Notes: generated by a model from the sequence alone, not told the origin. Positions 2-16,758 are shown, counted from the stretch's first letter. The stretch: DNA of 18,636 bases from Candidatus Iainarchaeum sp. (GCA_028700905.1 JAQVRT010000006.1:1-18636); one strand, 5' to 3'. Numbers and translations are program-made.

Positions 2-718
2 GGAATTGCAATTTATCATGTTGATGAACAATATATAGAAGACAATTATCCTACTAACAGTATCATGTGGGATCCTGATGGAGATTTCTATGATGATACT
101 GGTGGACATCCAGGAATTGTTTTTGAAGAAAATTTTAAAGAAAGTACTTTTAATCATATATATGATTCAATTGATTTGTATTCAAAAGATTATGATGATT
201 TAATTGGAGACAATACTTTTGGCTATTTTGATAGATATCAAAGATTCTATCCTGAATATGGTGCAATTTGGGATTATCACAATAAAGCATATAATGGTAA
301 TTTAACTGGTGTTACTGTTGGTACTTTAAGTGGTAGTGGTTCTATTGTTTATGCTTATCTTCAAAGTTATCAAGAACCTTTTGATGCTTTAATTTCTTCT
401 CCAAAGAGTAACAGATGGTATAAATATACTAACAATTTAAATTTTATTTCAAGTTATTATAACAACTTAGGAGATGTTAGTTGTGTTTGGGAAGATTCAA
501 GTAAAAATATTCTTTCTCAAGATTGTGAATTTTCTGCAACTCCAGAAGAGTTAGATCTTCCAATCAGTGAATGTTCAGAAAAAATAACTTTAACTTTAGA
601 AATAACAGATCAAGAAACTGGAGATACAATTATTGATACTGTTGATATTAAGATTTATGAAACCATAAGAGATATTTGTGAGACTGCTAATAATAACACA
701 CAAGCAGCAACAAAATAA
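2..718 (+). CDS. C-terminal part of a secreted/extracellular protein (5' end lies outside the window); function unknown, possibly M6/InhA-like metalloprotease-associated
   Basis: The frame of the 65..718 ORF stays open back to base 2 (GIAIYHVDEQYIEDNYPTNS...), so the gene starts upstream of the window. Stop is TAA 716-718. The product is D/N/Y/S-rich with scattered Cys and no TM segment. The AIYHVDE string resembles the hydrophobic-W/Y-H-[IV]-D-E string I recall from immune-inhibitor-A (M6) type peptidases, which is a weak match. Confidence 0.6.
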   Translation, partial: GIAIYHVDEQYIEDNYPTNSIMWDPDGDFYDDTGGHPGIVFEENFKESTFNHIYDSIDLYSKDYDDLIGDNTFGYFDRYQRFYPEYGAIWDYHNKAYNGNLTGVTVGTLSGSGSIVYAYLQSYQEPFDALISSPKSNRWYKYTNNLNFISSYYNNLGDVSCVWEDSSKNILSQDCEFSATPEELDLPISECSEKITLTLEITDQETGDTIIDTVDIKIYETIRDICETANNNTQAATK

Positions 719-794
719 AAAAATAAGTAAACCATTTATATACTTTATGTTACATAATTTATAATATAATATTTAATTTTAAAAATAAAAATAG

Positions 795-902
795 GTGAAT
801 ATTTTGACAAAAATTAAAAAAGGACAAGTTTCTTTAGAAGCAATTATTATAATTGGTGTTATTGTTTTAGCAAGTATTATATTTGCGACATTCTATATTT
901 CT
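795..902 (+). other. Class III signal peptide / pilin-like N-terminal helix of the 983-aa protein (predicted prepilin-peptidase cut after Gly10, nt 824/825)
   Basis: A basic stretch (K6, K8, K9) is followed by G10, then Q+1, V+2, S+3, L+4, E+5 and about 20 uninterrupted hydrophobic residues. This matches the KGQ-x-S-x-E pattern of EppA/PibD/FlaK substrates (Class_IIIsignal/DUF361-type pilins). Confidence 0.75.
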
Positions 903-3746
903 AATGTTAATAAAAAAATAGATACTGCAAGTAATCTAGATCCAAATTTTTCTGGAATGATTGGATCTGATGAAATGGGATCAATTGATCCTATTGATAT
1001 AGGAGAAGATCCAGGTCCAGGTCCAGGAGGAAGTACTTGTGGTAATGATATTGTTGAAGGCACTGAAGATTGTGATGGTACTGATTTAAATGGTGCTACA
1101 TGTGAAACTGAAGGTCAAGGTTCAGGAGATTTATCTTGTAATTCAAATTGTACTTTTAATAATTCTGGATGTTCTAGTCCAACAACAAGTTATACAATAA
1201 CTTCAAGTCATGGATCAAACGGTTCAATTAATCCATTAGGAGCAGTTACAGTTTTAGAAGGTGCAAGTAAAAAATTTAGTTTTTTTCCAAATGCAGGTTA
1301 TGATGTAGATACTGTTTCAATTGATGGTGCAGAAGTTTCTCTTAGTGAAAGAAGAAGTTATACTTTTAATAATGTTACTTCAGATCATACAATACATGTA
1401 ACATTTAAACCACAATCTTCAAATGAACATATTATTTTTGCAAGTAATGGTTCACATGGAACTATAGATCCTGCTGGAAATAATACAGTTACAGAAGGAG
1501 ATGATATTACTTTTACATTTAATCCAGATACAGGATATCGTGTAGGTAATGTTTATATTGATTCTTTAACAGTTGGTGCTGAACAAATAGAAATTATTAA
1601 TGATTTTTCTTCAAAAGATTCTGAAAATAATAATTTATATTTTTCTGAAGAAGATACTTTATATTTTGCAGCTAATACAGGTCCAGGAACTTCTTCAAAT
1701 TTAGTTTATACTTTTGAAGATGTAGATGATAGTCATACTATACATGTAACTTTTATTTCAAATACAACTCCAACATATACTTTAGATTATATAGCTGGAG
1801 CTAATGGTAGTATTGATGGTTTTGCTTCTCAAACTATAAATCAAGGAGAAGATGGAGATGAAGTATGTGCTGTTGCAGATGCTGGTTATGTTTTTGAAAA
1901 TTGGGATGATAACTTACAAACAGAATGTAGAACTGAAACAAATGTAACAAGTAACCAAACATATACTGTTTCATTTACAGAAGCAGCAGGTCAAACAATG
2001 GCTATGGATTTAGAAGGTGTTGAATCAACTCCAATAAGTCAAAATTTTGATGTTGTTGTTAATACTTCTGAAACTCCAGGAACTGTAAGTTATGGTTTAG
2101 TTGCAGATTTATTAATTTATAATGATGTTGCAGGAGATTATTTACCTACAAACAATTGTTCTTATAACGGAACTTTTGCTTCAACACACACACTTGAAAC
2201 AAATCAATCCCCAGGTATTGAAAATTATACATTCTCTTGTAATACTTCTGGAAACTATAAATTTACATTTACAGCAACAGATACAACTAATCCAACAAAT
2301 GATGTTTCAAGAGATAAATTAATAACTGTTGTAAATAATCAAACAGCAGCTGCACCTACATTTTCAATTGACGGAGATACTTATTATAATGACCAAACAT
2401 TAATTTTAAGTTCAACAACTCCTGGTGCAACTATTAAATACACAATTAATGGAGCAAATCCAACATGTACTACAGGAACAACTTATTCAAGTCCAATTCA
2501 AATTAACCAAGTTTCAACAGTAAAAGCAATTGCTTGTAAATCAGGATATATTGAAAGTCCAATTGTTACAGAAATTTATAATTTAAAAGTTGGAACTCCT
2601 ACACCAAGTGTTAATCCTGGTGTATATTCTCAAGCACAAACAATTACTCTTTCAACAGAAACAATTGGTGCAACTTTGTATTATTCAACAGATGGTTCTG
2701 GTGCTTTTGATGGAAGTGTTTATGTTCCAGGAGAAGAAATAATAATTTCAAGCCCATTTACTGAATTAAGAATAGCAGGAATAAAATCAAATTATAATGA
2801 TAGTGAAGAATATGATGAAATCTATTATATAAATGGTTATGAATCTCCTACTCCAAGCATGGTTTTTACAAATGATTATGGAGGTGCATTTGATCTTGTA
2901 GGTGCTGCAAATTTAACTCATGGAAATGTTTTCATTGAAGATGAAGTAAATAATTTAGTAAGATTTATTGATCCTAAATTAGATGGAAATTATTTTAACG
3001 GAAGTAATGCTTCAGGAGATACATTAATAGATTGTGAGGCATTTTGTTCTGAAAAGTATTTAGGAGGAACTTGTTATTCTTATGATACTATTAATTATTC
3101 TGGAAATGGAAATGATTTAATCTATTATAGATACATGATTCCAGGTGCTGGAGGGACAAATGATGTTTTCCCTTACACTATTGGAGGTATGTTATCTAAT
3201 TCTTCTCAATGGGCTTATGGTTCCGGAGTGACTGGAGGTCCGGATAGAGTAGAATACTTCACTTGTGATTTCTCACATACTCCAAGTCCAGAAGATACAG
3301 ACTTTGGATTTATTGATTTATACACAGTAGATTTATTACAGTGTGATGGAACTTTTGATTGTACAGGATACTATTATGATTCTGCAAGAGTAACTTTTGA
3401 AAATGTTACAAAAGTAGGTTCAGAATATACTTACTCAGGTTTAAATGTTGTAGGTAATTTTGTTACACAAGGTGCTACTGCTCCAACAGGAACAGTTTAC
3501 ATACTTTCAGATGATTTCTCACAAGCTTGTGATGCTGTATGTGATGCTTTATATCAAGGAAGTTCTTGTGAGAATTATGATGATAGTCAAATATCTTCTC
3601 AAGGTAAAGCTGTTTCATATAAATATTTTAGTCTTTTTCTTAACCCTAATTTAAGTACAGGTTATTATTGGACATCTGGAAGTCCACTTTTTTATGATGT
3701 TTATGCAGGAGATTATGTTCTTTCAGAAGTTACTTGTTCAAAGTAA
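795..3746 (+). CDS. Large modular surface protein with N-terminal class III (archaeal type IV pilin-like) signal peptide; putative pilus-associated adhesin
   Basis: Single 983-codon ORF with stop TAA 3744-3746. GTG 795 overlaps an AGGTGA Shine-Dalgarno (793-798), so TTG 804, 5 nt after the SD, is an equally likely true start. The N-terminus reads TKIKKG/QVSLEAIIIIGVIVLASIIFATFYI, i.e. K-G-Q-x-S-x-E plus a hydrophobic helix. The body has a GPGPGG linker, a CGNDIVEGTEDCDG Cys-rich module, 3 InlB-B-repeat-like units, 2 chitobiase/hexosaminidase-C-like units and a duplicated 4-Cys C-terminal module. A hairpin plus T-run lies directly downstream. Confidence 0.9.
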   Translation: MNILTKIKKGQVSLEAIIIIGVIVLASIIFATFYISNVNKKIDTASNLDPNFSGMIGSDEMGSIDPIDIGEDPGPGPGGSTCGNDIVEGTEDCDGTDLNGATCETEGQGSGDLSCNSNCTFNNSGCSSPTTSYTITSSHGSNGSINPLGAVTVLEGASKKFSFFPNAGYDVDTVSIDGAEVSLSERRSYTFNNVTSDHTIHVTFKPQSSNEHIIFASNGSHGTIDPAGNNTVTEGDDITFTFNPDTGYRVGNVYIDSLTVGAEQIEIINDFSSKDSENNNLYFSEEDTLYFAANTGPGTSSNLVYTFEDVDDSHTIHVTFISNTTPTYTLDYIAGANGSIDGFASQTINQGEDGDEVCAVADAGYVFENWDDNLQTECRTETNVTSNQTYTVSFTEAAGQTMAMDLEGVESTPISQNFDVVVNTSETPGTVSYGLVADLLIYNDVAGDYLPTNNCSYNGTFASTHTLETNQSPGIENYTFSCNTSGNYKFTFTATDTTNPTNDVSRDKLITVVNNQTAAAPTFSIDGDTYYNDQTLILSSTTPGATIKYTINGANPTCTTGTTYSSPIQINQVSTVKAIACKSGYIESPIVTEIYNLKVGTPTPSVNPGVYSQAQTITLSTETIGATLYYSTDGSGAFDGSVYVPGEEIIISSPFTELRIAGIKSNYNDSEEYDEIYYINGYESPTPSMVFTNDYGGAFDLVGAANLTHGNVFIEDEVNNLVRFIDPKLDGNYFNGSNASGDTLIDCEAFCSEKYLGGTCYSYDTINYSGNGNDLIYYRYMIPGAGGTNDVFPYTIGGMLSNSSQWAYGSGVTGGPDRVEYFTCDFSHTPSPEDTDFGFIDLYTVDLLQCDGTFDCTGYYYDSARVTFENVTKVGSEYTYSGLNVVGNFVTQGATAPTGTVYILSDDFSQACDAVCDALYQGSSCENYDDSQISSQGKAVSYKYFSLFLNPNLSTGYYWTSGSPLFYDVYAGDYVLSEVTCSK
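1038..1172 (+). other. Cysteine-rich module CGNDIVEGTEDCDG...C...C...C...C (DUF4215 / Myxococcus cysteine-rich-repeat-like)
   Basis: CGNDIVEGTEDCDGTDLNGATCETEGQGSGDLSCNSNCTFNNSGC has 6 Cys. The CGN-x3-E-x2-E-x-CDG opening matches the consensus I recall for that repeat family. Confidence 0.55.
1191..1976 (+). repeat. Three tandem InlB B-repeat-like (Flg_new / Flg_new_2-like) beta domains inside the 983-aa protein (1191-1406, 1428-1754, 1776-1976)
   Basis: Unit 1 is YTITSSHGSNGSINPLGAVTVLEGASKKFSFFPNAGYDVDTVSIDG...SDHTIHVTF. Unit 2 is HIIFASNGSHGTIDPAGNNTVTEGDDITFTFNPDTGYRVGNVYID...(insertion)...DSHTIHVTF. Unit 3 is YTLDYIAGANGSIDGFASQTINQGEDGDEV.AVADAGYVFENWDD...YTVSF. All share the skeleton nGsI.P.G...V.eG....F...P..GY ... 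(H)T(I)(H)V(T)F. Confidence 0.7.
2352..2831 (+). repeat. Two tandem chitobiase/beta-hexosaminidase C-terminal-like (CHB_HEX_C-type) domains (2352-2579, 2598-2831)
   Basis: Unit 1 is APTFSIDGDTYYNDQTLILSSTTPGATIKYTINGANPT..GTTYSSPIQINQVSTVKAIACKSGYIESPIVTEIY. Unit 2 is PTPSVNPGVYSQAQTITLSTETIGATLYYSTDGSG...VYVPGEEIIISSPFTELRIAGIKSNYNDSEEYDEIYYI. Both fit the P.fS...G.Y....v.Lss...GATIyYTtDGs.P....Y..PI.i...t.vKA.A...G...S pattern. Confidence 0.65.
2985..3743 (+). repeat. Internally duplicated, unassigned 4-Cys C-terminal module (copy A 2985-3272, copy B 3453-3743)
   Basis: Copy A reads GNYFNGSNASGDTLIDCEAFCSEKYLGGTCYSYD...VEYFTCDF. Copy B reads GNFVTQGATAPTGTVYILSDDFSQACDAVCDALYQGSSCENYD...VLSEVTCSK. 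Both have the identical spacing C-x3-C-x3-Y-x4-C-x2-YD plus a terminal TC. Confidence 0.7.
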
Positions 3747-3753
3747 TTTTTAA

Positions 3754-3796
3754 AAAAGCTTAAGATTTCTTTTAAGCTTTTCTTTTTTTTTCTTTT
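3754..3796 (+). terminator. Hairpin plus oligo-T terminator after the 983-aa gene
   Basis: aaaagcttaa (3754-3763) pairs perfectly with ttaagctttt (3772-3781), giving a 10-bp stem with an 8-nt loop. It is followed by tcttttttttctttttt. Oligo-T is the established archaeal termination signal. Confidence 0.7.
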
Positions 3797-3918
3797 TATA
3801 TAGCTTTTTTTAAATAATTATATTTAAAAACATTCCTCCATATATAATATTTATATATATAGTTCTTTTTTTCAAAAAAAACTAAAAAACCAATGACACT
3901 ATAAGGAGGTTGTTTGTC

Positions 3919-4458
3919 ATGTCTGAATTTATAAAATTCTCTGTACCTGAAGATTTAAGAGTTTTACAAGATGAAACTATTAAAAAATTATCAAAATCAG
4001 GTAAAATAAAAATAGGTATAAACGAAGTTACAAAAACAATTGAAAGAGGAAATGCAAAATTTGTTATTATTGCTGAAGATGTATCTCCTGCTGAAATTGT
4101 AATGCATATACCAATAATCTCAAAAGAGAAAAAAATCCCTTTTTCTTATGCAAAAACTAAAGAAGATTTAGGTAAAATGGTTGGTATTTCTGCAAAAGCA
4201 AGTTGTGTTGCTATAACAGATGCTGGTTCAATGCAAAAAGAATTAACAACATTAATCGATAAGATTGAAGAAGTTTCTGGTGGTAAAAAAGCAGCTGCAA
4301 AAACAGAAGATGTTAAAAAAGAAAAACCTTCTCCTAAAAAAGAAGAAGTAAAAAAAGAAGCTCCTTCTCCTAAAAAAGAAGAAGAAGTAAAAAAAGAAAC
4401 ACCTAAAGAAGAAAAACCAGAAAATAAAGAAGAAGTTAAAAAAGAAAACAAAGAATGA
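3919..4458 (+). CDS. rpl7ae: 50S ribosomal protein L7Ae (K-turn binding) with an approximately 57-aa Lys/Glu/Pro-rich C-terminal extension
   Basis: NEVTKTIERGNAKFVIIAEDVSPAEIVMHIP...KIPFSYAKTKEDLGKMVGISAKASCVAI is a typical L7Ae/L30e-fold core. It is the first gene of the conserved rpl7ae-rps28e-rpl24e trio. SD AAGGAGG is at 3903-3909 and ATG at 3919. The ORF-track TTG 3910 abuts the SD and is unlikely. Stop is TGA 4456-4458. Confidence 0.93.
   Translation: MSEFIKFSVPEDLRVLQDETIKKLSKSGKIKIGINEVTKTIERGNAKFVIIAEDVSPAEIVMHIPIISKEKKIPFSYAKTKEDLGKMVGISAKASCVAITDAGSMQKELTTLIDKIEEVSGGKKAAAKTEDVKKEKPSPKKEEVKKEAPSPKKEEEVKKETPKEEKPENKEEVKKENKE
4327..4401 (+). repeat. 36-nt tandem duplication inside the L7Ae tail (PSPKKEEVKKEA / PSPKKEEEVKKET)
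   Basis: ccttctcctaaaaaagaagaagtaaaaaaagaagct (4327-4362) is repeated from 4363 with one extra gaa codon. Confidence 0.85.
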
Positions 4459-4470
4459 GGTGAATAATTT

Positions 4471-4683
4471 ATGGCTGATGAAGGAATACCTGCAGAAGTA
4501 GTAGAAGTTGTAGGTAGAACTGGTTCTCGTGGAGAAGCTACCCAAGTTCTTTGTAGAGTTATTGATGGTTATGAGAAAGGTAGAATTAAAAAAAGAAATG
4601 TCAAAGGTAATGTTAAGAAAGGAGACATTCTATTATTAATGAATCCAGAAACAGAAGCAAAGGACATTAAGGCACGTAGGTGA
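4471..4683 (+). CDS. rps28e: 30S ribosomal protein S28e
   Basis: AEVVEVVGRTGSRGEATQVLCRV...GR.KKRNVKGNVKKGDILLLMNPETEAK matches the S28e consensus (GRTG..GE.TQV ... RNV.GPV..GDIL.L.E.EREA). SD GAGGTGA lies 7 nt upstream. Confidence 0.95.
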   Translation: MADEGIPAEVVEVVGRTGSRGEATQVLCRVIDGYEKGRIKKRNVKGNVKKGDILLLMNPETEAKDIKARR

Positions 4684-4689
4684 TTTTTA

Positions 4690-4884
4690 ATGCAATGTAC
4701 ATTTTGCGGAAAAGAAGTTCCAAAAGGGACTGGTGTTTTATATGCAAAGAAAGATGGAACTACTTTTATATTTTGTTCAAGCAAATGTAAAATTAATGTT
4801 CTTGAAAAAAAATTCAAAGCACATAAAACCAAATGGACAAATAAATATCATGTAGAAAAAGAAAGACATTTAAAGAAAAAATAA
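4690..4884 (+). CDS. rpl24e: 50S ribosomal protein L24e
   Basis: MQCTFCGKEVPKGTGVLYAKKDGTTFIFCSSKC is the L24e zinc-binding N-terminus. SD AGGTGA is upstream and a T-run lies downstream. Confidence 0.95.
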   Translation: MQCTFCGKEVPKGTGVLYAKKDGTTFIFCSSKCKINVLEKKFKAHKTKWTNKYHVEKERHLKKK

Positions 4885-4908
4885 TTTTTTTTCTTTTTCT
4901 TTTTTCTT
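4885..4908 (+). terminator. Oligo-T termination tract after rpl24e
   Basis: ttttttttctttttcttttttctt lies immediately after the TAA stop (4882-4884). An AT-rich promoter-like spacer follows before aIF5B. Confidence 0.5.
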
Positions 4909-4983
4909 CAAATATTTCTAAATATAAATATTTTTTTTAATATAAATTAAATATTTAAAATAAAAATAAATAAAAGGTGGTTT

Positions 4984-6726
4984 TTGTTGTTTAGACAACC
5001 AATAATTACAATAATGGGACACATTGATTCTGGAAAAACAACTTTTCTAGATAAGATCAAGGGTACCGGTATTGCAAAACTTGAAGCTGGAAAAATAACA
5101 CAGCATATTGGGGCAACAGAGATATCTTTAGATGTTATTTTAAAAATTTGTTCACATCTTTTAGAAAAATATAAATTTCAAGTAACAATTCCAGGTTTGT
5201 TATTTATTGACACACCAGGACATAATGCTTTTGATAATTTAAGAGAGAGAGGTGGCTCTTTAGCAGATTTAGTTGTTTTAGTTGTTGATATTAATAAAGG
5301 TCTTCAAGCACAAGATATTGAAACTTTAGAAATATTAAAAATGTATAAAGTTCCATTTATTATTGCTGCAAACAAAATAGATTTAGTTTCAGGATATTTT
5401 CAAGAAGGAAAAGATATCTCTCAAGCTTTAGAAAAACAATCAAAATCAACTGAAGATAAAATAGATGAATTAATCTACAAAATTGTTGGACAACTTTATG
5501 ACAAAGGTTTTCAAGCTGAAAGGTTTGATAGAATTTCTGACTTTAAAAAACAAATTGCAATTATTCCAACCTCTTGTGAAAAAGAATATGGTTTAACAGA
5601 AGCAATTTTATTTTTATCAGTTCTTTCTCAAAAGTTTTTAGGTCCAAGAATAACAATTGAATCTTCTCAAAAACCACAAGCAACAATCTTAGAGGTTGGA
5701 GAAATAACTGGTATTGGAAAAACAGTTGATGCAATTGTTTATCAAGGAGTTTTAAAAGTAAAAGATAAAGTTTCTTTTCTTTCAAGAGAAGGAGTTATTG
5801 AAACAAAAATAAAATCTCTTCTTAAATTAAATGTAATGAGTGCAATTAATAAAAAAAGAGATTATAAAAACGTAGATTTTGTATCAGCTGCAAGTGGAGT
5901 TAAAATAGTTGGTCCTGATCTTGATAAATGTATTCCAGGAAGTATTATTGTTTCTTCTGAAGATTTAGATGCTGTTGAAAGATTAAAAGAAAAAACATTA
6001 AATAGTTTTGTATCATCAGATATTGATGGTGCTTTTCTAAAAACAGATACTTTAGGATCTTTAGAAGCATTAATTAAGCTTCTTACAAAAAATAATATTC
6101 CAATCGCAAAAGCAGATATTGGTCCTATTACACAAAAAGATATTTTAGAAATTAAAGTTTTAAATCAAAGAGATAAGAAAAAAGGAGTTTTGTTTTTATT
6201 TAATGCAAATATTTCAAAAGATTTTTTAGAAGATTTAAATAAAGAAAAAATTCCAGTTTTTAAAAATAATATAATCTATAAACTTATAGAAGAACATGCC
6301 GATTGGCTTTTAAAAGAAAACAAAATTGAAAAAGATAGTTTACTTAAGGAAATTATTTTTCCTTGTGAAATTAAAGTTTTAAAAAACCATATATTCAGAA
6401 CTAGTAAACCTGCAATTGTTGGAGTTAAAGTTGTTGCAGGAAAATTAACTCCTGGTTCAAGAGTATTATTAAATGATAAAGAAATTGGAGTTGTTGAAGG
6501 AATTCAAGCTGAAGGAAAATCTTTAGATATTTTAGAAAGAGGTTCTGAAGCTGCAATTTCAATTAAACATGCAGTATATTTAAAAGATTTTAAAGAGGAA
6601 GATGTTTTTTCAGTATATGTTCCTGATTCCTCTATTAAAAAACTTGAACAAATGATAGATGATCTTACAAATGAAGAACAAGAAATGTTATATAAAATTA
6701 AATCAAAAAGAATTAATGTAAATTAA
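4984..6726 (+). CDS. infB: Translation initiation factor aIF5B (IF2-type GTPase)
   Basis: RQPIITIMGHIDSGKTTFLDKIKG is G1, with Ser where GHVDHGKT is usual. DTPGH is G3 and ANKID is G4. The 580-aa length and a C-terminal beta-barrel/helical part fit aIF5B. TTG start at 4984 (or 4987) follows SD AAGGTGG at 4974-4980. Confidence 0.93.
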   Translation: MLFRQPIITIMGHIDSGKTTFLDKIKGTGIAKLEAGKITQHIGATEISLDVILKICSHLLEKYKFQVTIPGLLFIDTPGHNAFDNLRERGGSLADLVVLVVDINKGLQAQDIETLEILKMYKVPFIIAANKIDLVSGYFQEGKDISQALEKQSKSTEDKIDELIYKIVGQLYDKGFQAERFDRISDFKKQIAIIPTSCEKEYGLTEAILFLSVLSQKFLGPRITIESSQKPQATILEVGEITGIGKTVDAIVYQGVLKVKDKVSFLSREGVIETKIKSLLKLNVMSAINKKRDYKNVDFVSAASGVKIVGPDLDKCIPGSIIVSSEDLDAVERLKEKTLNSFVSSDIDGAFLKTDTLGSLEALIKLLTKNNIPIAKADIGPITQKDILEIKVLNQRDKKKGVLFLFNANISKDFLEDLNKEKIPVFKNNIIYKLIEEHADWLLKENKIEKDSLLKEIIFPCEIKVLKNHIFRTSKPAIVGVKVVAGKLTPGSRVLLNDKEIGVVEGIQAEGKSLDILERGSEAAISIKHAVYLKDFKEEDVFSVYVPDSSIKKLEQMIDDLTNEEQEMLYKIKSKRINVN

Positions 6727-6748
6727 AAGAAACTGAGGTGTTTTAAAA

Positions 6749-7132
6749 ATGAAATTAAATATTGCAGACCCTAAAAATGCAAAAACTTTTTCAATAGAAG
6801 CAGATGAAAAAAATAGTCTTTACTTTGTTGGAAAAAAATTAAAAGATGAAGTTGACTTATCTTTCATTGCAGCAGGACTTAAAGGAGTAATTACTGGTGG
6901 TTCTGATAAAGATGGTTTTCCAATGCACGGAGCACTTGATTCAGAAAATAGAAAAAAATTATTATTATCTGGTGGAGTTGGATTTAAACCTACAAGAAAA
7001 GGTGAAAGAAGAAGAAAAAGAGTTGCTGGAAGAATAATTACAACTCACATACAACAAATAAATATTAAATTAACTGCAGGTGATTCTAAAGTTTTAGAAG
7101 AAAAACATACAAAAAAAGATGAAAAGAAATAA
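6749..7132 (+). CDS. rps6e: 30S ribosomal protein S6e
   Basis: MKLNIADP..AKTFSIE...GKKLKDEVDLS...GGSDKDGFPM...GFKP.RKGERRRK.V.G matches S6e. SD GAGGTG is upstream. Confidence 0.93.
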   Translation: MKLNIADPKNAKTFSIEADEKNSLYFVGKKLKDEVDLSFIAAGLKGVITGGSDKDGFPMHGALDSENRKKLLLSGGVGFKPTRKGERRRKRVAGRIITTHIQQINIKLTAGDSKVLEEKHTKKDEKK

Positions 7133-7159
7133 AAGGATGAAATAAGTAGGTATTAATAT

Positions 7160-8365
7160 ATGAATAATGAAATTCAAGCAGAACTAAATATAGGGATTGT
7201 AGGACACGTTGATCACGGAAAAACAACATTAACTTCAAAGCTAACCGGTAAATGGACAGATAGACATTCTGAAGAAATAAAACAAGGAATTTCTATTAAA
7301 TTAGGTTATGCAGACGCAGAGTTCTATATTGATCCATCAGTTTCTGGAATTTCAAGCTATACCTCTCAAAAAACACACCCTTTGACAGGAAATAAGACTG
7401 AGTTGATAAGAAAAGTGTCATTTGTGGATGCTCCTGGCCACGAAACCTTAATGGCAGTTATGCTCTCTGGAGCTGCATTATTAAATGGTGCAATTTTAGT
7501 AGTTGCTGCAAATGAAGAATGTCCTCAACCAAGAACTGTTGAACATCTTTTAGCACTTAAGATGCATGGTATTAAAAATTTAGTTGTTGCTCAAAATAAA
7601 ATAGATTTAGTTTCAAAAGAAGAAGCTCTTTTAAATTATAAAAAACTAAGAGAGTTTTTAGATTCTGAAGGTTATAAGGATTCTCCAATTATTCCAACTT
7701 CTGCTCATTTTGATACAAATATTGATGCTTTAATTTATGCAATTGTAAACACTATTGAAAAACCTTCAATTGAAAAATTATCTTCTAAACCTTTAAAGAT
7801 GCAGATTGTAAGATCTTTTGATATTAATAAACCTTCAACAAAAATAAAAGAACTTAAAGGTGGAGTTTTAGGTGGAGCTATTTTAGAAGGTAAAATTTCT
7901 GTAAATGATAAATGTTTTATTTATCCTGGTTTTGAAAATGGTCCTATTGAGTTTAAGGTTAAATCTTTAAATTCTGAAAGAATTTCACTTAAGAGTGCAC
8001 ACGCTGGTGGACTTATAGCAATTGGAACTGATTTAGATCCTTTCTTTTGTTTTTCAGATAAAATGGTTGGTCAGATTGTTTGTGAAGAAAAATCAAAACC
8101 TACTCTTTCAAATATTATAAAAATTGATTATAATAAAATAGAAAGATTAATTGAACCAAATCAATCAGAATTTAAGATTGGAGAAAGAATTGTTTTAGTT
8201 ATAGGTTCTTCTGCTCAAGTAGGAGTTATTAAAAAAATAAATAAAAATAATGAATTTGAAATAATGCTTGCAAGAAACGCAGCTTTTTATCCAAAAAATA
8301 AAGTTGCAGTAAGCAGAAATGTAAATAGTAGATGGAGACTTGCAGGATATGGGGAGATTAAATAA
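7160..8365 (+). CDS. eif2g: Translation initiation factor aIF2 gamma subunit (zinc-knuckle cysteines absent)
   Basis: NIGIVGHVDHGKTTLTSKLTGKWTDRHSEEIKQGISIKLGYA, VDAPGHE, AQNKID, SAHFDTNIDAL, IVRSFDINKP and the C-terminal SRWRLAGYGEI align along the whole length with aIF2gamma as I remember it from Sulfolobus. Confidence 0.95.
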   Translation: MNNEIQAELNIGIVGHVDHGKTTLTSKLTGKWTDRHSEEIKQGISIKLGYADAEFYIDPSVSGISSYTSQKTHPLTGNKTELIRKVSFVDAPGHETLMAVMLSGAALLNGAILVVAANEECPQPRTVEHLLALKMHGIKNLVVAQNKIDLVSKEEALLNYKKLREFLDSEGYKDSPIIPTSAHFDTNIDALIYAIVNTIEKPSIEKLSSKPLKMQIVRSFDINKPSTKIKELKGGVLGGAILEGKISVNDKCFIYPGFENGPIEFKVKSLNSERISLKSAHAGGLIAIGTDLDPFFCFSDKMVGQIVCEEKSKPTLSNIIKIDYNKIERLIEPNQSEFKIGERIVLVIGSSAQVGVIKKINKNNEFEIMLARNAAFYPKNKVAVSRNVNSRWRLAGYGEIK

Positions 8366-8756
8366 TATTTTGATTGATACAAATGTATTAATCTATATGT
8401 ATGAAAACAAAAAAGATATCTTTGATTATGTTACAGTTTTAATCCCTGATCCAAAGTTTTTTATTTTAGATAAAGTTTTTGATGAACTTTCAAAAGTTTA
8501 TAAAACTAAACCTAATAAGTTTTTAGGTATTAAAAGATATTTAGAAAAATTAAAAGAAATAAATAAGTTTGAAATTATTGAAGTTGGAGAAGATGTTTTA
8601 AGTCTTAGTGTTAAATTTACAAAAATAGATAACTTATTAATATATTACAGTAATAAATATTTAGTATATACAAATGATAAAATATTAAAAGATAAAATTA
8701 AAAAAAAAGGAAATAGAGTTTTAACTTTAAAAAATAATGGTGTTTTATTAATTTAA
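8340..8756 (+). CDS. PIN-domain protein, Fcf1/COG1412-like (conserved partner of eif2g-rpoE in archaea)
   Basis: ILIDTNVLIY (first acidic PIN residue), DKVFDEL and VYTNDKILKDKIKKKGNRVLTL (Fcf1-like vaT.D..L+..l+..g) are present. The position between aIF2gamma and Rpo7 is the established archaeal gene order. The start is uncertain: TTG 8340 or ATG 8349, both overlapping the end of eif2g (stop 8363-8365). Confidence 0.8.
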   Translation: MQDMGRLNNILIDTNVLIYMYENKKDIFDYVTVLIPDPKFFILDKVFDELSKVYKTKPNKFLGIKRYLEKLKEINKFEIIEVGEDVLSLSVKFTKIDNLLIYYSNKYLVYTNDKILKDKIKKKGNRVLTLKNNGVLLI

Positions 8757-8787: not shown

Positions 8788-9417
8788 ATGGGTTATAAAA
8801 AATTTGATGTAGAAGGAATCGTTTCAGTATCTCCTTTAAATTTATCTGGAGAATTAAAAGATATTTTAAAAGAACAATTATCAATTAACTATGATGGTGT
8901 TATTGATAAAGACATAGGTCTTATAATTGCAATAACAGATGTTTTAGATCATAGTGAAGGAGAAATTATTCCTGGAGATTCAGATGTTTTCTTTAAAGTT
9001 AAATTTAGAGTAATAAGTTTTCTTCCTAAATTACATGAAGTTATTAGAGGTAGAGTTACACAAGCAACTGATTTTGGTGCTTTTATAAATATTGGTCCTT
9101 TTGAAGGTTTATGTCATGTTTCTCAAGTAATGCCAGATTTTAATTCTTATAACCCTGAACTTCCTGGTTTCTTTGCAAAAGAAAGTAAAAAAACATTAGT
9201 GGTTGAAGATAAAGTTTTAACTAGAATTTCAAACATTAGTTTTAAGAAAACAATTGCTGAAACAAAAATTGGTCTTACAATGAGACAAACAGGTCTTGGT
9301 AAAGAAGAATGGATTGCAATTGATGCAAAGGCTGAGAAGAAAACTACTAAAAAAACATCTAAAAAAGATGATACTAAAGAAAAAAAGACCACAACTAAAA
9401 AAGGTGGTAAAAAATGA
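8788..9417 (+). CDS. rpoE: DNA-directed RNA polymerase subunit Rpo7 (RpoE/E') with Lys/Thr-rich C-terminal tail
   Basis: An N-terminal Rpb7-like fold is followed by an S1 domain (EVIRGRVTQATDFGAFINIGPFEGLCHVSQV). SD GAGGAAG is upstream. The stop TGA overlaps the spt4 start (ATGA at 9414-9417). Confidence 0.9.
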   Translation: MGYKKFDVEGIVSVSPLNLSGELKDILKEQLSINYDGVIDKDIGLIIAITDVLDHSEGEIIPGDSDVFFKVKFRVISFLPKLHEVIRGRVTQATDFGAFINIGPFEGLCHVSQVMPDFNSYNPELPGFFAKESKKTLVVEDKVLTRISNISFKKTIAETKIGLTMRQTGLGKEEWIAIDAKAEKKTTKKTSKKDDTKEKKTTTKKGGKK

Positions 9418-9774: not shown

Positions 9775-10185
9775 ATGGAAATAGAATTTGAAAAATCAAG
9801 AAATGAACTTTTAAAAAGAACAAATGTTTTTGTAAAAATTAGAAGTGTTAAAACACCAAGTAAAAAAGAACTTCAAACAAAAGTTGCTTCTGTTCTTGCA
9901 TGTGATGAAGCATTAGTTGTTGTTGATAAAATTTCTCAAGAATTTGGATCTAAAATTTCAAATGCATATGTTAAGGTTTATGATTCTTTAGAAGCTTTAA
10001 AAAAAATAGAGCTTGAACATAACATTAGAGATATTTTAAAAGAAGAAAAAGAAAAAGAAGAGGCACTTAAAGCTGAAAGAAAAGCAAAAAAAGAAGCTGC
10101 AAAAAAACCAGCTGAACCTGAAAAAGAAGAAGCTGAAAAAGAAGAAGCTGAAGAAAAGTCTCAGGAAGAAGTTAAAGAAGAGTAG
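9775..10185 (+). CDS. rps24e: 30S ribosomal protein S24e with Lys/Glu-rich C-terminal tail
   Basis: NELLKRTNVFVKI....TPSKKELQTKVASVL..DEALVVVDKISQEFGSKISNAYVKVYDSLEALKKIE is S24e-like. SD AAGGTGA lies 6 nt upstream. Confidence 0.9.
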   Translation: MEIEFEKSRNELLKRTNVFVKIRSVKTPSKKELQTKVASVLACDEALVVVDKISQEFGSKISNAYVKVYDSLEALKKIELEHNIRDILKEEKEKEEALKAERKAKKEAAKKPAEPEKEEAEKEEAEEKSQEEVKEE

Positions 10186-11465: not shown

Positions 11466-11828
11466 ATGGTTACAATAAAAAATATGGCTGATAATCCTGA
11501 AAAGATATGGTTGCAATTTCTTATATTGAGATTGATTTATGAAAATCCAACTTATGGTTATAAGTTAATTAAAGATATTAATAAAATAAGTAATGGAAAA
11601 TATATTGTTAAATCAGGTACTATGTATACTACACTTAGACGAATGGAAAAAAATAAATTACTGAATTCTATTTGGGAAAAAAATGAGTCTGGTCCTAGTA
11701 GTAGAATTTATAATCTAACTATAAAAGGTAAAATAAAACTTAAAAATTTACTTAAAATGGTTGTTGAAAGAAAAAAAATAATAGATCAGTTAATTAAATT
11801 TTATGAAAAAGAATTTAAAGAACAATAA
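11466..11828 (+). CDS. PadR-family winged-helix transcriptional regulator
   Basis: LQFLILRLIYENPTYGYKLIKDI....G.Y.VKSGTMYTTLRRMEKNKLLNS.WE.....SSRIYNLTIKGK matches the PadR consensus (hGYel...i ... gtlYp.L.rLe..Gli ... r+.Y.lT..G). A C-terminal dimerisation helix follows. Confidence 0.88.
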   Translation: MVTIKNMADNPEKIWLQFLILRLIYENPTYGYKLIKDINKISNGKYIVKSGTMYTTLRRMEKNKLLNSIWEKNESGPSSRIYNLTIKGKIKLKNLLKMVVERKKIIDQLIKFYEKEFKEQ

Positions 11829-11852
11829 ATATAATGTAAATTAAGATTATTT

Positions 11853-12077
11853 ATGAAAATAAAATTACATCAAATATTACTTTGGATTACAATAATTTCT
11901 TTAATAGTTTTAGTTATATCTACTGTACCTTTATTAGTTAGTTATTTAAAAAATGTAGATGTTAAATTTCCAATGTTTGTAACTATTCATGTTTGGTCTG
12001 GTATTATACTATTAGTGGTTGTATTATTAAGAGTTTTTATTAATCGTAAAAAATTAAAGATAATGCTTACTAATTAG
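11853..12077 (+). CDS. Small two-TM membrane protein (DUF4405-like H-x-W-x-G helix pair), function unknown
   Basis: The 74-aa product has two hydrophobic helices (ILLWITIISLIVLVISTVPLLV and FVTIHVWSGIILLVVVLLRVF). It is packed between padR and the CARDB-like gene with 24-nt gaps on each side. Confidence 0.6.
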   Translation: MKIKLHQILLWITIISLIVLVISTVPLLVSYLKNVDVKFPMFVTIHVWSGIILLVVVLLRVFINRKKLKIMLTN

Positions 12078-12101
12078 TTATTTTAAAAATTAAGGAGTTA
12101 A

Positions 12102-13307
12102 TTGATTAATATGTTTTCAAAAAAAATTATTTTAGTATCTGTTTTATTTTTACTTACATCTTTATTTTCGGGGTTGATTTTCTCTGAAAGATATATAGAT
12201 AGTTCTTATGTTCAAGTTATTGCTCAAGAAGTAAGTCCTGAACCAGTAGAGCCTGGTCAAGATTTTTTACTAAAAGTTAGAGTTCATAATTTTGGAACAG
12301 TGGATGCTAAAAATGTAAAAATTAATCTTGATTTAAATTATCCTTTTTATTTAAAAAATACAAGTGAGTCTTATATTGACTTTAATTCGATTTGTTCTAA
12401 TTGTTCTGCAGAAAATACATATTATTTTACAGTTTCAAGTTCTGCAGTTTCAGGGATATATCCCATACATTTTAATATATCTGAAATAAATAATGAAACT
12501 GTTTCTTTTAAACCTCAAATAATAGATATTTCCATATTAGGTAAACCTGATTTAGTTTTAGAAACCATAAAAGTAGATCAAAATATTTCTGCCGGAGATA
12601 TATTTAATATTAAATTTTTATTAAGGAATATAGGTACTGGGAATTCTAGAAATATAAAAATAATTCCTAATTCTGATGATTTTATGCTTATTGGGACAAA
12701 TACTAAATGGTTTGAAGAATTAGGTCCCAATAAAGAAATTATTTTTGATTTAAATTTTATTTCAAACAAAGATTTAATTTCAAATAGTTATATTTTTCCT
12801 ATAGATCTTGAATTTTTAGGAGAAAAACAAAATTTTTATACCTCTTCATATAATATTGGAATTAATCTTTTAGGAAAAGCAGATTTATCTTTACAAAATT
12901 TAAAAATTACTCCTTTAAACCCTTCTTTAAAAGATTTAATTAATTTTGAAGGAATTATTGAAAATATAGGAAATGGAAAAGCAAATAATGTTTCTTTAGA
13001 ATTATTTGTTTCAAATGATGAGAATTATAAATATTATATTGGTCAATTAAATAAAGATGATGATGCTCCTTTTTATTTTAATGAAATTAAATTTAATTCT
13101 GTTGGAAATAATAAAGTAAATTTGATTGTAAATTATGATGATGATTACGGTAATTATAAAATAGAAATTCCTTTAAATCAAAATATAAATAAATCTAATA
13201 ATTTATCTTTATTTTTTATAGTTTTATTTTTATTTTTGGTTTTATTTTTTAGTTTGTATTTATTAAAAAATAATAAACACAATAAAAATAAAAAAATAAA
13301 GAATTGA
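12102..13307 (+). CDS. Surface protein with three CARDB-like (COG1361 'S-layer domain') modules, N-terminal signal/anchor and C-terminal TM anchor
   Basis: The N-terminus is hydrophobic (KKIILVSVLFLLTSLFSGLIF). Three modules recur: PEPVEPGQDFLLKVRVHNFGTVDAKNVKINL, ISAGDIFNIKFLLRNIGTGNSRNIKIIP and LNPSLKDLINFEGIIENIGNGKANNVSLEL, sharing the CARDB-like G..f.l...i.N.G...a.nv.v.l pattern. The C-terminus is LSLFFIVLFLFLVLFFSLYLL followed by a basic tail. SD AAGGAG is at 12092-12097. The start is TTG 12102 or ATG 12111. Confidence 0.8.
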   Translation: MINMFSKKIILVSVLFLLTSLFSGLIFSERYIDSSYVQVIAQEVSPEPVEPGQDFLLKVRVHNFGTVDAKNVKINLDLNYPFYLKNTSESYIDFNSICSNCSAENTYYFTVSSSAVSGIYPIHFNISEINNETVSFKPQIIDISILGKPDLVLETIKVDQNISAGDIFNIKFLLRNIGTGNSRNIKIIPNSDDFMLIGTNTKWFEELGPNKEIIFDLNFISNKDLISNSYIFPIDLEFLGEKQNFYTSSYNIGINLLGKADLSLQNLKITPLNPSLKDLINFEGIIENIGNGKANNVSLELFVSNDENYKYYIGQLNKDDDAPFYFNEIKFNSVGNNKVNLIVNYDDDYGNYKIEIPLNQNINKSNNLSLFFIVLFLFLVLFFSLYLLKNNKHNKNKKIKN

Positions 13308-13318
13308 TTTAGATTTAT

Positions 13319-14518
13319 ATGAATAAAAAAGATATTAAGCTAATGTTTTTTTTAGCTTATAAAAATATAATTAAAAGTAAATCTACTTTTATTGTAATTG
13401 TAGCTGTAATGGCTATGAGTTTTTTGTCAATAACTTTTTTTTCTGCAATTATTGATGGGTTAAGTTATGAATTTGAAGAGTCGATGATTGATGGTCAAAC
13501 AGGGCATTTAATGATCGAACCATCTAATGAAGAAAGTTTTATATTTAATTCTGATAGATTAGAAAAAAATATTTCTAAAATTCCAGGAGTAATTGGTGTT
13601 TCTTCAAGATTAGAATCAAATATTTTAATTACTTATAAAAATGAAGAGCTAGGGGCACCTGTTTTCTTTATTGATCCTATTGATGAACAAAAAGTATCTA
13701 ATTTTCATGAAAGTTTAATAGAAGGTAGTTTTCTTTCATATAAAGATACATCTGAAATTATTATTGGTTCTGATTTACTAGAACAGTATGCGCCTATAGA
13801 TGATACTAAGAAAAGGTTTAATCTTAGAATAGGGGATAATATTATTTTAACTTTTAATAATGGTTATAAAAAAGAATATAAAATCAAAGGTATTTTTAAA
13901 ACAGGTTCTAAGTTTAATGATGATAAAATTTTAATTAATAAAGAAGAATATTTTTCAATATTCAATAAAGAAGATATTTCTCATAAAATACTTATTAAAC
14001 TTCCTTCAAGAGGTCTTGAAAAAGAATATATTCAAAAGATAGAAGCTTTAGGAATAATTGAACAGATTAACCCTTGGGAAACTAAGATTGGTATGATTAA
14101 ACAATTTGTAGGAAGTCTTCAAATTACAAATCAGATAACTGGTTTTATAGGTTTATTAACTGCATTTGCAACAATTTACATAATTATTTTTATAAATGTA
14201 ACTAATAAAAGAAAGCAGATAGGTATATTAAAAGCTATAGGTATTAAAAAAAAAATTATTCTTGGATCATATATTATTCAATCTTTTATTTATGGTTTTG
14301 TAGGTGTTATTTTTGGAAATATTATTATGCAAATTTTGTTGGCTTTACTTGCAAGTTATCCATTATCTATGCCTATTGGGGATGTAGTTCCATTACTAAC
14401 AATAGGTAAATTATTAACTACCTCTTTTATTTTAATTTTAGCCTCTATTGTTGCAGGTTTTTTTCCTTCTAGAAAAGCTTCTAATGATAATATCTTAGAT
14501 GCTATATTTGGAGGATAG
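13319..14518 (+). CDS. ABC transporter permease, FtsX/MacB type (N-terminal TM, large extracytoplasmic domain, three C-terminal TMs)
   Basis: The 399-aa product starts with AYKNIIKSKSTFIVIVAVMAMSFLSITFFSAI. An approximately 230-aa soluble insert follows, then the FtsX-like region KRKQIGILKAIGIKKKIILGSYIIQSF...LASIVAGFFPSRKASNDNILDAI (consensus r.+EigiLKAiGa....i......E ... P A.+A.+..p..al). Confidence 0.9.
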   Translation: MNKKDIKLMFFLAYKNIIKSKSTFIVIVAVMAMSFLSITFFSAIIDGLSYEFEESMIDGQTGHLMIEPSNEESFIFNSDRLEKNISKIPGVIGVSSRLESNILITYKNEELGAPVFFIDPIDEQKVSNFHESLIEGSFLSYKDTSEIIIGSDLLEQYAPIDDTKKRFNLRIGDNIILTFNNGYKKEYKIKGIFKTGSKFNDDKILINKEEYFSIFNKEDISHKILIKLPSRGLEKEYIQKIEALGIIEQINPWETKIGMIKQFVGSLQITNQITGFIGLLTAFATIYIIIFINVTNKRKQIGILKAIGIKKKIILGSYIIQSFIYGFVGVIFGNIIMQILLALLASYPLSMPIGDVVPLLTIGKLLTTSFILILASIVAGFFPSRKASNDNILDAIFGG

Positions 14519-14521
14519 ATT

Positions 14522-15211
14522 ATGATTAAAAATATTATTGAAGTAAATAAACTTGAAAGAATATATTCTAATGGAATTGTTAAAACTTATGCCTTAAAAG
14601 ACGTTTCTTTAAGTATAAAACCTGGTGAATTTGTTGCAATTATGGGGCCTAGTGGTTCTGGAAAAAGCACTTTACTTCATCAGTTAGGACTGTTAGATAC
14701 TCCAACTAATGGAAGTATTATTATTGATAATGAAGATGTATCGAAATTAACTGATAAACAAAAAACTACCTTTAGATTAGAAAAATTAGGTTATGTTTTT
14801 CAGTCATATAATTTATTACCAGAACTTAATGTTATTGAAAATGTTTTTTTAACCTCTATGGCTAAAGGTTTAGATCCTAAAGAATATAATTTGAGAGCAA
14901 AAGATATTCTTGAAAAAGTAGGTTTAAAAGATAGATTGTATTATTATCCTTCTGAACTTTCTGGAGGTCAACAACAAAGAGTTTCTATTGCAAGAGCATT
15001 AGTTAATAAACCTAAAATTTTATTTGCAGATGAACCAACTGCAAATCTTGATTCTGATTCTTCTCAAGATATAATTGATTTATTTAAAAAATTAAATAAA
15101 GAAATTAATCAAACTATTGTTATGGTAACACATGAATTAGAAGAAGGTAAAAAAGCAGATAGGATAATTTGGATTAAAGATGGTATTCTAGATAAGTCTG
15201 TAAAAGTTTAA
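14522..15211 (+). CDS. ABC transporter ATP-binding protein (MacB/LolD-like, COG1136 type)
   Basis: Walker A GPSGSGKST (14645-14671), Q-loop FQSYNLLP, signature LSGGQQQRVSIARAL, Walker B ILFADEPT and H-loop VTHE are all present. SD GGAGG lies inside the permease stop region, 3 nt after the permease stop. Confidence 0.95.
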   Translation: MIKNIIEVNKLERIYSNGIVKTYALKDVSLSIKPGEFVAIMGPSGSGKSTLLHQLGLLDTPTNGSIIIDNEDVSKLTDKQKTTFRLEKLGYVFQSYNLLPELNVIENVFLTSMAKGLDPKEYNLRAKDILEKVGLKDRLYYYPSELSGGQQQRVSIARALVNKPKILFADEPTANLDSDSSQDIIDLFKKLNKEINQTIVMVTHELEEGKKADRIIWIKDGILDKSVKV

Positions 15212-16677: not shown

Positions 16678-16701
16678 TATTTAATTTTTATAAATATATT
16701 T

Positions 16702-16758
16702 TGTATTACTCACATCTGTGTATTACTCACAATCTTTTTAAATGTTTTGAGTAATACA
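16702..16758 (+). promoter_or_regulatory. Three copies of an 11-13-nt motif (two direct, one inverted) between a TATA-like box and the fic start codon
   Basis: TGTATTACTCACA occurs at 16702-16714 and again at 16719-16731, a 17-nt period. The inverted copy TGAGTAATACA is at 16748-16758, 5 nt before ATG 16764. Copies 2 and 3 form a perfect 11-bp inverted repeat with an 18-nt spacer. TATA-like tttttataaatatatt is at 16686-16700. Confidence 0.6.

Follow-up and report, generated by a model that had tools for sequence, protein, structure and literature searches.

The stretch of DNA analyzed here, called the window throughout, comprises 18,636 nucleotides from Candidatus Iainarchaeum sp. (GCA_028700905.1, JAQVRT010000006.1:1-18636). 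Its longest open reading frame specifies a protein that combines an archaeal pilin-type N-terminus with a large body of several modules. In the reading favored here, to which about even chances are given, this protein of 980 amino acids (aa) is an extracellular, disulfide-rich multi-domain adhesin with a helix-only pilin module of the DUF361/EppA class as its sole attachment device. Judged from the sequence, the adhesin is probably N-glycosylated and probably displayed through the pilus machinery; its first 40 residues appear to copy signal and helix of the lineage's own pilus subunit.

The N-terminal class III signal

The N-terminus of the adhesin reads MTKIKKG/QVSLEAIIIIGVIVLASIIFATFYI, a basic leader of 7 aa ending in Gly and followed by Gln at +1, Ser at +3, and Glu at +5. 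All 27 positions of the Pfam model Class_IIIsignal (PF04021) were matched by this head, which in full is MTKIKKG/QVSLEAIIIIGVIVLASIIFATFYISNVNKKID. The match reached 27.5 bits (E 2.9e-6) with the isolated N-terminal 78 aa and 23.0 bits (E 7.5e-5) with the whole protein, the gathering cut-off being 23.7 bits. In Methanococcus maripaludis, EppA substrates have leaders of 5 to 13 aa ending in Gly and a conserved Gln at +1 and Glu at +5 (PMC3875500). MTKIKKG/QVSLE agrees with this description in its short basic leader, the terminal Gly, Gln+1, and Glu+5, and a hydrophobic helix of at least about 20 residues directly follows the predicted cleavage site. By these features, the N-terminus is classified as a class III signal, as had been proposed in a preliminary description of this DNA, and more precisely as one of the DUF361/EppA type.

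Kyte-Doolittle windows above 1.6 were confined to residues 4-36; there is no other hydrophobic segment in the protein, and a hydrophobicity scan over its whole length revealed no C-terminal anchor. A low-confidence structural model predicts a helix at residues 11-38. Among four clusters of orthologs with 84-90% identity, residues 1-40 are 90% invariant and constitute the best-conserved part of the protein. The same head is retained in a paralog of 345 aa, the body of which is otherwise unrelated. Next to the adhesin gene, the M6 peptidase encoded upstream has a textbook Sec signal (MYLKKLTLVLLFLFIFSIPVFSF), and two signal types are found side by side in one locus.

The position of the predicted cleavage site depends on the start codon. 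An open reading frame from 795 to 3746 was confirmed, with 983 codons counted from GTG 795. This GTG, however, falls within the Shine-Dalgarno-like sequence AGGTGA (792-797), and the ATG codons of the related genes in L011 and L013 align exactly with TTG 804, at the same distance downstream of AGGTGA. For these reasons GTG 795 was rejected, and TTG 804 is almost certainly the true start. The NCBI model of the identical protein, MDD4049609.1, also begins at TTG 804 and has 980 aa. The open reading frame of the preliminary description is therefore real, but the length of 983 aa and the mature end at Gln11 given there have to be replaced; the leader is MTKIKKG, and the mature protein is predicted to begin with Gln8. 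The KGQ motif is retained with either start codon, and the downstream start at TTG 804 does not remove it. After cleavage the N-terminus would read QVSLEAIIIIG..., and without cleavage MTKIKKGQVSLE...

A pilus locus in close relatives

Pilus genes were not detected by motif in the window or within 10 kb on either side of the orthologs and paralogs. A scan of metagenomes with the pattern [KR]GQ[VIS][SA][LI]E[AYF][ILV]I returned 22 loci. L007 and L023 are located on one contig of 331,976 bp, Ga0334898_1000022. L007, at about 122 kb, contains an ortholog of the adhesin gene which is 86.6% identical and has the same M6 neighbor. L023, at about 317 kb and thus about 195 kb apart, contains a compact pilus locus of the Epd type, which spans positions 5899-13580 of L023. 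The gene order is given in Table 1. Six class III proteins are encoded in this locus, including a pilin of 57 aa, and its genes for an ATPase, two platform proteins, and a dedicated peptidase identify it as the 'system 1' or Epd layout, which has been reported for methanogens, Thermococcales, and DPANN archaea (bioRxiv 10.64898/2026.04.22.720090). With 51 bits against a cut-off of 450 for the EppA equivalog model, the peptidase is EppA-like and not an EppA ortholog by the NCBI standard. Related AT-rich genomes have a locus of the L023 type as well. It is kept at 92-97% identity in L021 and L022, which, to judge by shared prefixes of the contig names, probably stem from Crystal Geyser samples. 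In L024 and L017/L018, identities amount to 60-89% for ATPase and platform proteins and to 39-67% for the peptidase. The preliminary description had considered that prepilin peptidase and assembly genes might be absent; for the lineage, a full set was found on the 332-kb contig of the ortholog.

The adhesin and the 57-aa pilin agree in all residues from -2 to +5, KG/QVSLE. Among the first 15 mature residues 11 are shared with the 57-aa pilin, Glu+5 included, and only four to seven with the other five pilin-like proteins. This similarity exceeds what recognition by the peptidase alone would need, and it constitutes the main argument that the helix may pack among the 57-aa subunits; for incorporation into a filament it is indirect support. 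By its size and position, the 57-aa protein is a candidate for the major pilin.

Proposed mechanism and alternatives

According to the mechanism proposed here, the N-terminal helix would insert the adhesin into the membrane, where it would be cut between Gly7 and Gln8 by the EppA-like A24 prepilin peptidase encoded in the only Epd-type pilus locus of the lineage (two platform genes, 'system 1'). The freed helix, QVSLEAIIIIGVIVL..., would mimic that of the Flp/Epd-like major-pilin candidate of 57 aa, and the pilus ATPase and platform proteins would load the adhesin as a minor or tip subunit, present in the filament at low abundance. A flexible linker of 37 aa would keep the body of about 900 aa off the shaft. 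The variable double Cys module at the far C-terminal end would be the likely ligand- or host-binding part, and the secreted M6 metalloprotease encoded next to the adhesin probably has the same surface as its target. What we infer from the sequences is cleavage, incorporation into a filament, adhesion, and a host target, and the filament step might with equal probability be right or wrong. Retention of the head on different bodies, in the 345-aa paralog and in distant relatives of 990-1,015 aa, was counted in favor of the pilus.

Several observations weigh against this mechanism. The pilus locus is known from relatives at 84-87% identity only, the analysis having covered these in place of the window's own metagenome-assembled genome, and the major-pilin role of the 57-aa protein is itself deduced. 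PF04021 scores 0.7 bits below its gathering cut-off on the full-length protein. The adhesin gene lies outside the pilus locus, the distance being about 195 kb, and inside a ribosomal-protein cluster; the window copy is found between the genes for the M6 peptidase and L7Ae. A globular pilin domain does not follow the helix: residues 41-77 form the linker, a Cys-rich repeat comes next, and no pilin-domain family was matched. Helix-only pilins of the Flp/Epd type likewise lack a globular pilin module. Finally, archaeal class III proteins can stay membrane-tethered, as has been proposed for sugar-binding proteins of Sulfolobus. The adhesin could accordingly be processed as a class III protein without being polymerized, its helix staying in the membrane or in a short pseudopilus while linker and body project through the S-layer. 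Helix, linker, and functional body are also combined without a globular pilin in class III substrate-binding proteins (bioRxiv 10.64898/2026.04.22.720090), and both the unlinked adhesin gene and the location of the paralog beside genes for an S-layer protein and a DsbA-like protein would fit. This possibility is nevertheless regarded as the less probable one, since the 11 of 15 residues shared with the 57-aa pilin go beyond a recognition site, the helix is 90% invariant, and pilus-like assembly is the favored model even for the bindosome, the system formed by such substrate-binding proteins in Sulfolobus.

It is quite improbable that the N-terminus is an uncleaved type II signal anchor, or that the protein is secreted by Sec, with KGQVSLE inherited but without a present role in processing. 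The marginal PF04021 score of the full-length protein and its NCBI name, taken from the chitobiase C-terminal domain alone, would agree with this, but the isolated N-terminus passes the Pfam cut-off, and the motif is invariant in orthologs, paralog, and distant relatives while the bodies were replaced. A charged Glu opening a hydrophobic stretch of about 25 residues is unlike the h-region of a Sec signal, as a comparison with the M6 neighbor illustrates, and the lineage possesses an EppA-like peptidase and pilins with the same residues -2 to +5. As regards the plain Sec signal anchor named in the preliminary description as a possible outcome, the head was found to differ from the ordinary Sec signal of the M6 peptidase. 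Display for a different purpose would be conceivable if the body were a scaffold or carbohydrate-binding partner of the M6 protease in a surface-tethered complex scavenging polymers, the head serving for display only. Conserved adjacency to M6, CHB_HEX_C-type domains in adhesin bodies as well as in the M6 partners of L013 and L015, the S8 subtilase beside class III proteins in L006, and the minimal metabolism predicted for a related archaeon, Candidatus Forterrea multitransposorum (PMC5905446), all point in this direction. Yet a catalytic or known carbohydrate-binding module was not detected in the body, and the fast divergence of its distal module would suit a recognition part facing a partner surface that varies, so that little probability is assigned to the scaffold. 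It would be compatible with display through the pilus and does not exclude it.

Body modules and flanking signals

The modules following the helix are listed in Table 1. They correspond to the composition given in the preliminary description, that is a linker, a Cys-rich module, three InlB repeats, a beta-rich module, two CHB_HEX_C domains, and a duplicated Cys module. Of the profiles named there, Class_IIIsignal was recovered with the isolated N-terminus, and Flg_new_2 and CHB_HEX_C_1 were recovered as well, but a direct Pfam match was not obtained for the six-Cys module at residues 78-124. About 13 tandem copies of this module, CGNxIxEGTEDCDG..C..C..C..C, with 45-60% identity to it are present in P0072, a protein which in turn matches DUF4215 and TIGR02232 weakly. 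The linker in front of it has a Gly-rich equivalent in the 345-aa paralog.

For PF18998 (Flg_new_2, cut-off 23.6 bits), 48.8 bits were obtained over three stretches; scored singly, these reached 22.1, 21.0, and 37.9 bits, only the third passing the cut-off. Whole-protein scores for PF13290 (71.8 bits, cut-off 22 bits) and PF13287 (55 bits, cut-off 23 bits) are both above the gathering score. Residues 439-493 of the beta-rich module show 29% identity to a stretch of the 345-aa paralog in a pairwise comparison (E 0.005).

The two C-terminal halves have equal Cys spacing, C744-C748-C757...C821 and C909-C913-C922...C978. With 60-70% of their residues invariant among orthologs, they vary more than any other part of the protein. 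When the C-terminal 302 aa were compared with 1.84 billion representatives in an exhaustive HMMER search, the orthologs and five weak NHL-repeat matches only were revealed, and neither a PDB sequence search nor a Pfam search with this region gave a match. The NHL-like stretch, about 40 aa long (E 2e-5 to 6e-4 for the whole library), corresponds to one blade-like motif at about residues 698-740 of the first module. An NHL propeller was rejected, one blade-like stretch contrasting with the usual five to six tandem blades and a Pfam NHL match being absent. The distal region thus appears to be lineage-restricted. AlphaFold2 models of the full protein and of the C-terminal 302 aa, calculated from alignments of four sequences, were unusable (predicted local distance difference test, pLDDT, 29.8 and 30.7).

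N-x-S/T sequons are present 26 times, compared with 15.7 +/- 3.4 in shuffled sequences, and the 22 Cys residues are grouped in sets within modules. Because of this excess and grouping, an extracellular archaeal glycoprotein would fit. Neither a catalytic nor a known carbohydrate-binding module was identified in the body.

Table 1. Features of the adhesin gene and its surroundings in the window, and genes of the pilus locus in L023
Feature	Location	Strand	Evidence and remarks
Secreted M6 (immune inhibitor A-like) metalloprotease gene, 3' end, last 239 codons	2-718	+	Frame open from window edge
AT-rich upstream region	735-803	+	TATA-like boxes TTTATATA (735-742) and TTTATAAT (757-764); Shine-Dalgarno-like AGGTGA (792-797); sequence reading
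Coding sequence, class III-signal adhesin, 980 aa	804-3746	+	TTG 804 start, TAA stop 3744-3746; maximal open reading frame from GTG 795
Class III signal leader MTKIKKG, predicted cleavage after Gly7	804-824	+	PF04021 match, model 1-27; residues -2 to +5 identical to those of the 57-aa pilin
Mature pilin-like helix, Gln8-Asp40, QVSLEAIIIIGVIVLASIIFATFYISNVNKKID, Glu at +5	825-923	+	Sole hydrophobic segment; 90% invariant among orthologs
Low-complexity Asp/Gly/Pro linker, residues 41-77 (37 aa)	924-1034	+	Sequence; stands at the place of a globular pilin domain; no family match
Six-Cys acidic repeat module CGNDIVEGTEDCDG...C...C...C...C, residues 78-124	1035-1175	+	DUF4215/myxo_disulf_rpt-like
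Three divergent InlB B-repeat domains, residues 125-205, 206-320 (with insertion), 321-396	1176-1991	+	PF18998
Beta-rich Ig/PKD-like module, one Cys pair, residues 397-515	1992-2348	+	Weak Big_9/PKD-like matches, E ~0.01-0.04
Two CHB_HEX_C_1/Fn3_assoc (chitobiase/hexosaminidase C-terminal-type) domains, residues 516-595, 596-676	2349-2831	+	62.2 and 37.8 bits, cut-off 22
Two related Cys modules, residues 677-825 and 826-980, each CxxxCx8C...C	2832-3743	+	Self-comparison, E 3e-4
AT-rich 10-bp inverted repeat AAAAGCTTAA ... TTAAGCTTTT (3754-3781) into long T tract	3754-3798	+	Sequence reading
T2SSE ATPase, 667 aa	L023, first in order		165.9 bits
Two T2SSF platform genes	L023, after ATPase		56.3 and 57.1 bits
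57-aa pilin, MKFKRLIKDNKG/QVSLEFIIITGVVIL...	L023, after platform genes		PF04021, 32.5 bits
Three more class III proteins, 172, 155, and 62 aa	L023, after 57-aa pilin
Peptidase_A24 + Arc_PepC protein, 373 aa	L023, 11605-12726		50.4 + 28.2 bits; best NCBIfam match prepilin peptidase EppA
Two further class III proteins, 158 and 120 aa	L023, after peptidase

The adhesin gene is preceded by an AT-rich spacer of 76 nt in a window of about 25-30% G+C. AGGTGA and its spacing to the start codon are kept in the orthologs and in L011/L013, and the TATA-like boxes further upstream may serve as a promoter. The inverted repeat and T tract after the stop codon are a likely site of transcription stop; in a scan for consensus terminators this hairpin was not called, its stem having fewer than three G-C pairs. 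With the TATA-box spacer on one side and the repeat with its T tract on the other, the gene would constitute its own transcription unit.

The M6 metalloprotease partner

The gene adjoining the adhesin gene always specifies a secreted metalloprotease of the M6 (InhA-like) type in which the HEXXH motif is intact. The full ortholog in L001 has 696 aa, a Sec signal, HEFGH, a match to PF05547, and 114 bits on TIGR03296 (cut-off 110.8). In the window type M6 is located upstream of the adhesin. It is found downstream of the 345-aa paralog (37% identity; two copies in L012) and downstream of the type of about 1,000 aa with GLUG bodies in L011, L013, and L014. M6 and a class III head are paired in the window (2-718 with 804-3746), L004 (9989-13472), L012 (9989-15876), L011 (73-4149), L013 (9989-14880), and L015 (128-2751). 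The adjacency is thus seen with three unrelated body types and with the genes in either order. In L015, M6 occupies the place that the A24 peptidase has in L020, directly upstream of two pilin genes of the pilus locus, and in L006 an S8 subtilase is the neighbor in place of M6.

Since the IIFATFY helix is common to the body types, one ancestral cassette of head and M6 is suggested, in which the body would have been replaced repeatedly. Similarly, survival of the adjacency through body swaps and a change in gene order suggests functional coupling of M6 and adhesin; mere clustering of secretome genes would be an alternative. A report of a class III adhesin paired with M6 across three body types was not found in the literature. 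Extending the proposal further, the pair could represent a conserved 'grab-and-cut' cassette of Forterrea-like Diapherotrites and related AT-rich archaea, a pilus-delivered device for host attachment and attack. A constant helix-only head would plug interchangeable bodies of 345 to about 1,000 aa into the Epd-type pilus, and the always-adjacent M6 metalloprotease would breach the protein surface layer of the partner cell. This extension is considered rather unlikely.

In the window and in L001, the pair is wedged into a housekeeping cluster, between genes for a TrmB-like regulator and L7Ae (window 65-4458; L001 6980-13652). The TrmB-like regulator gene lies downstream of genes for ribosomal proteins and RNA polymerase subunits. 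Neighboring genes specify L7Ae, S28e, aIF5B, S6e, aIF2-gamma, a PIN protein, Rpb7/RpoE', Spt4, S24e, and S27ae.

Source organism and other head-bearing proteins

In a peptide-pattern scan covering one genome per species, the head was found in one genome only, the complete genome of Candidatus Forterrea multitransposorum (CP045477.1, 839,632 bp). It is present there twice, in an ortholog of the adhesin (L003) and in the 345-aa paralog (L004). The source of the window is a DPANN archaeon of the Diapherotrites close to Candidatus Forterrea multitransposorum, and the DPANN origin considered in the preliminary description was correct. The genome paper on Forterrea describes a transposon with only two fixed copies; pili are mentioned neither there nor in a comparative paper on DPANN archaea.

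A homolog search with the 345-aa paralog gave its own orthologs only, HMMER evidently discounting the hydrophobic head in such searches, and relatives sharing only the head were traced by peptide-pattern scans. Heads of the type KKG/QISIEALIIVS...IIFATFY are located on CHB_HEX_C and GLUG bodies in L011 (1,015 aa) and L013/L014 (991 and 990 aa). P0072 (1,442 aa) has a KRG/QSAIEF head, about 13 Cys-rich repeats, and LamG, and its neighbor of 550 aa carries an RRG/QISIEY head on Cys-rich repeats and LamG. Heads of the Pilin_N type (PF07790) were detected in P0045 (1,401 aa; four Flg_new_2 domains and PKD) and P0047 (1,637 aa; PKD). Large class III or adhesin-like proteins have also been predicted in archaeal pilus loci (PMC4858521), and thousands of class III substrate-binding proteins have been described as 'functionalised' filaments (bioRxiv 10.64898/2026.04.22.720090).

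Class III-signal archaeal surface proteins are therefore already known in kind. The preliminary description knew of no characterized example from archaea with a comparable size. Archaeal proteins of 990-1,640 aa with a pilin head do exist, and 'class III signal peptide-containing protein' is the NCBI label of the Forterrea ortholog (NCP72376.1 and others), while the window protein is named only by its chitobiase C-terminal domain; none of this size was found to be experimentally characterized, however. Distinctive to the window protein are the helix-only head, the orphan distal module, and the conserved M6 partner.

Two of these loci have further features. The 345-aa paralog (L004 9989-11026) is part of a surface-protein island, with a gene for a DsbA-like thioredoxin immediately upstream (L004 9133-9783, minus strand) and a gene for an S-layer protein (PF05124, L004 15152-17665) about 4 kb downstream. 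The DsbA-like gene is kept beside the paralog in a relative with 60% identity (L005 1557-2225, minus strand). In L006 (positions 106-7406; JGI 3300076213, ~38% G+C), the class III-headed proteins of 550 and 1,442 aa with Cys-rich acidic repeats and LamG are encoded next to each other, followed by the secreted S8 subtilase.

Comparison with known systems

The Epd pili of M. maripaludis, with their EppA-processed DUF361 pilins (EpdA-E, MMP0600/0601/0709), resemble the system described here in several respects. Short Gly-ended leaders, Gln+1, Glu+5, and a match to PF04021 are common to both, the major pilin is tiny and helix-only (57 aa for the candidate here, 74 aa in MMP1685), and the genes of several larger pilin-like proteins are found in part outside the main locus (PMC3875500). 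Both also have an A24 peptidase of their own, EppA-like in type, together with an ATPase and two platform genes. In contrast, the window protein has 980 aa with a linker and at least seven added modules, and the Forterrea-like lineage keeps all of its machinery in one locus.

Bindosome proteins of Sulfolobus likewise have a class III signal and helix fused directly to a large non-pilin domain, and their genes lie away from the assembly locus; for these substrate-binding proteins, membrane tethering and pilus-like assembly have both been discussed (bioRxiv 10.64898/2026.04.22.720090). The window protein, however, matches no solute-binding family, and its gene has an M6 peptidase gene and ribosomal genes as neighbors without an adjoining ABC transporter. 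It also differs by adhesin-type repeats, the M6 partner, and a signal of the euryarchaeal type with Gln+1 and Glu+5.

Bacterial modular pilins, to which the preliminary description compared the protein, carry extra adhesive modules on a pilin head, and presentation at the tip has been proposed for them (Streptococcus sanguinis PilB with vWA, PilC with Ig and lectin modules; PMC9934059). The comparison holds for a head with adhesive modules but not for the pilin itself. In the bacterial proteins the globular pilin module is complete, and their genes belong to the pil locus. The window protein has a helix continued by the flexible 37-aa linker, an unlinked gene, and a much larger body of about 900 aa. 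Other archaeal giants with a pilin head on a large body (P0045, P0047, P0072, L011, L013) differ in their bodies, and P0072 and its 550-aa neighbor keep a longer structured region after the helix, where the window protein has the linker only. Pilins of bacterial Tad/Flp pili, to which Epd is considered related, are also helix-only with about 50-60 aa and often Gln+1 (PMC3875500), but the Flp motif and Tyr+6 are absent from the window protein. As far as the proteins compared above are concerned, an architecture of this kind will not surprise a specialist, similar pilin-headed large proteins being frequent in archaeal metagenomes. We know of no Flp system with a body of 900 aa on a Flp-type helix.

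To our knowledge, it is largely obscure how DPANN archaea recognize and hold on to their partner cells, and we know of no cultured representative and no identified host for Diapherotrites. The adhesin, the paralog, and the locus of the 57-aa pilin now provide a concrete candidate for the attachment apparatus of the Forterrea lineage. This candidate comes with a predicted cleavage site (Gly7/Gln8), a peptidase, a candidate filament subunit, and a fast-diverging distal module that might serve as bait for the ligand. It would extend the idea of a 'functionalised' archaeal type IV filament from solute-binding proteins to giant adhesins.

Other features of the window

Three proteins encoded downstream of the adhesin gene, L7Ae (3919-4458), Rpb7/RpoE' (8788-9417), and S24e (9775-10185), have long C-terminal tails rich in Lys, Glu, and Pro beyond their Pfam domains, for example KKEKPSPKKEEVKKEAPSPKKEEE in L7Ae. 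In the translation-factor cluster, a PIN-domain gene (8340-8756) shares 26 nt with the aIF2-gamma gene, at the 3' end of the latter, an arrangement kept in L001. A cluster at 11466-15211, in the same order in L001, consists of genes for a PadR regulator, a membrane protein of 74 aa, a CARDB-domain protein of 401 aa that begins with a signal and ends with an anchor, an FtsX-type permease, and an ABC ATPase. Two short consecutive open reading frames follow at 15313-15543 (76 aa) and 15549-15821 (90 aa). In the first, which starts with a membrane anchor, a DUF2202-type motif, LNDEYKAE, was read by eye and without support from family searches; the second matches DUF2202 weakly (17.1 bits, cut-off 22). 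Both may represent one gene split by a stop codon or frameshift. Genes for an RNA ligase (PF09414), a Fic/DOC protein (HPFxDGNGR), and, on the opposite strand, a protein of the TraB/PrgY family are located at 16003-18475, and the sign of the G+C skew flips near 17 kb, at the switch of the coding strand.

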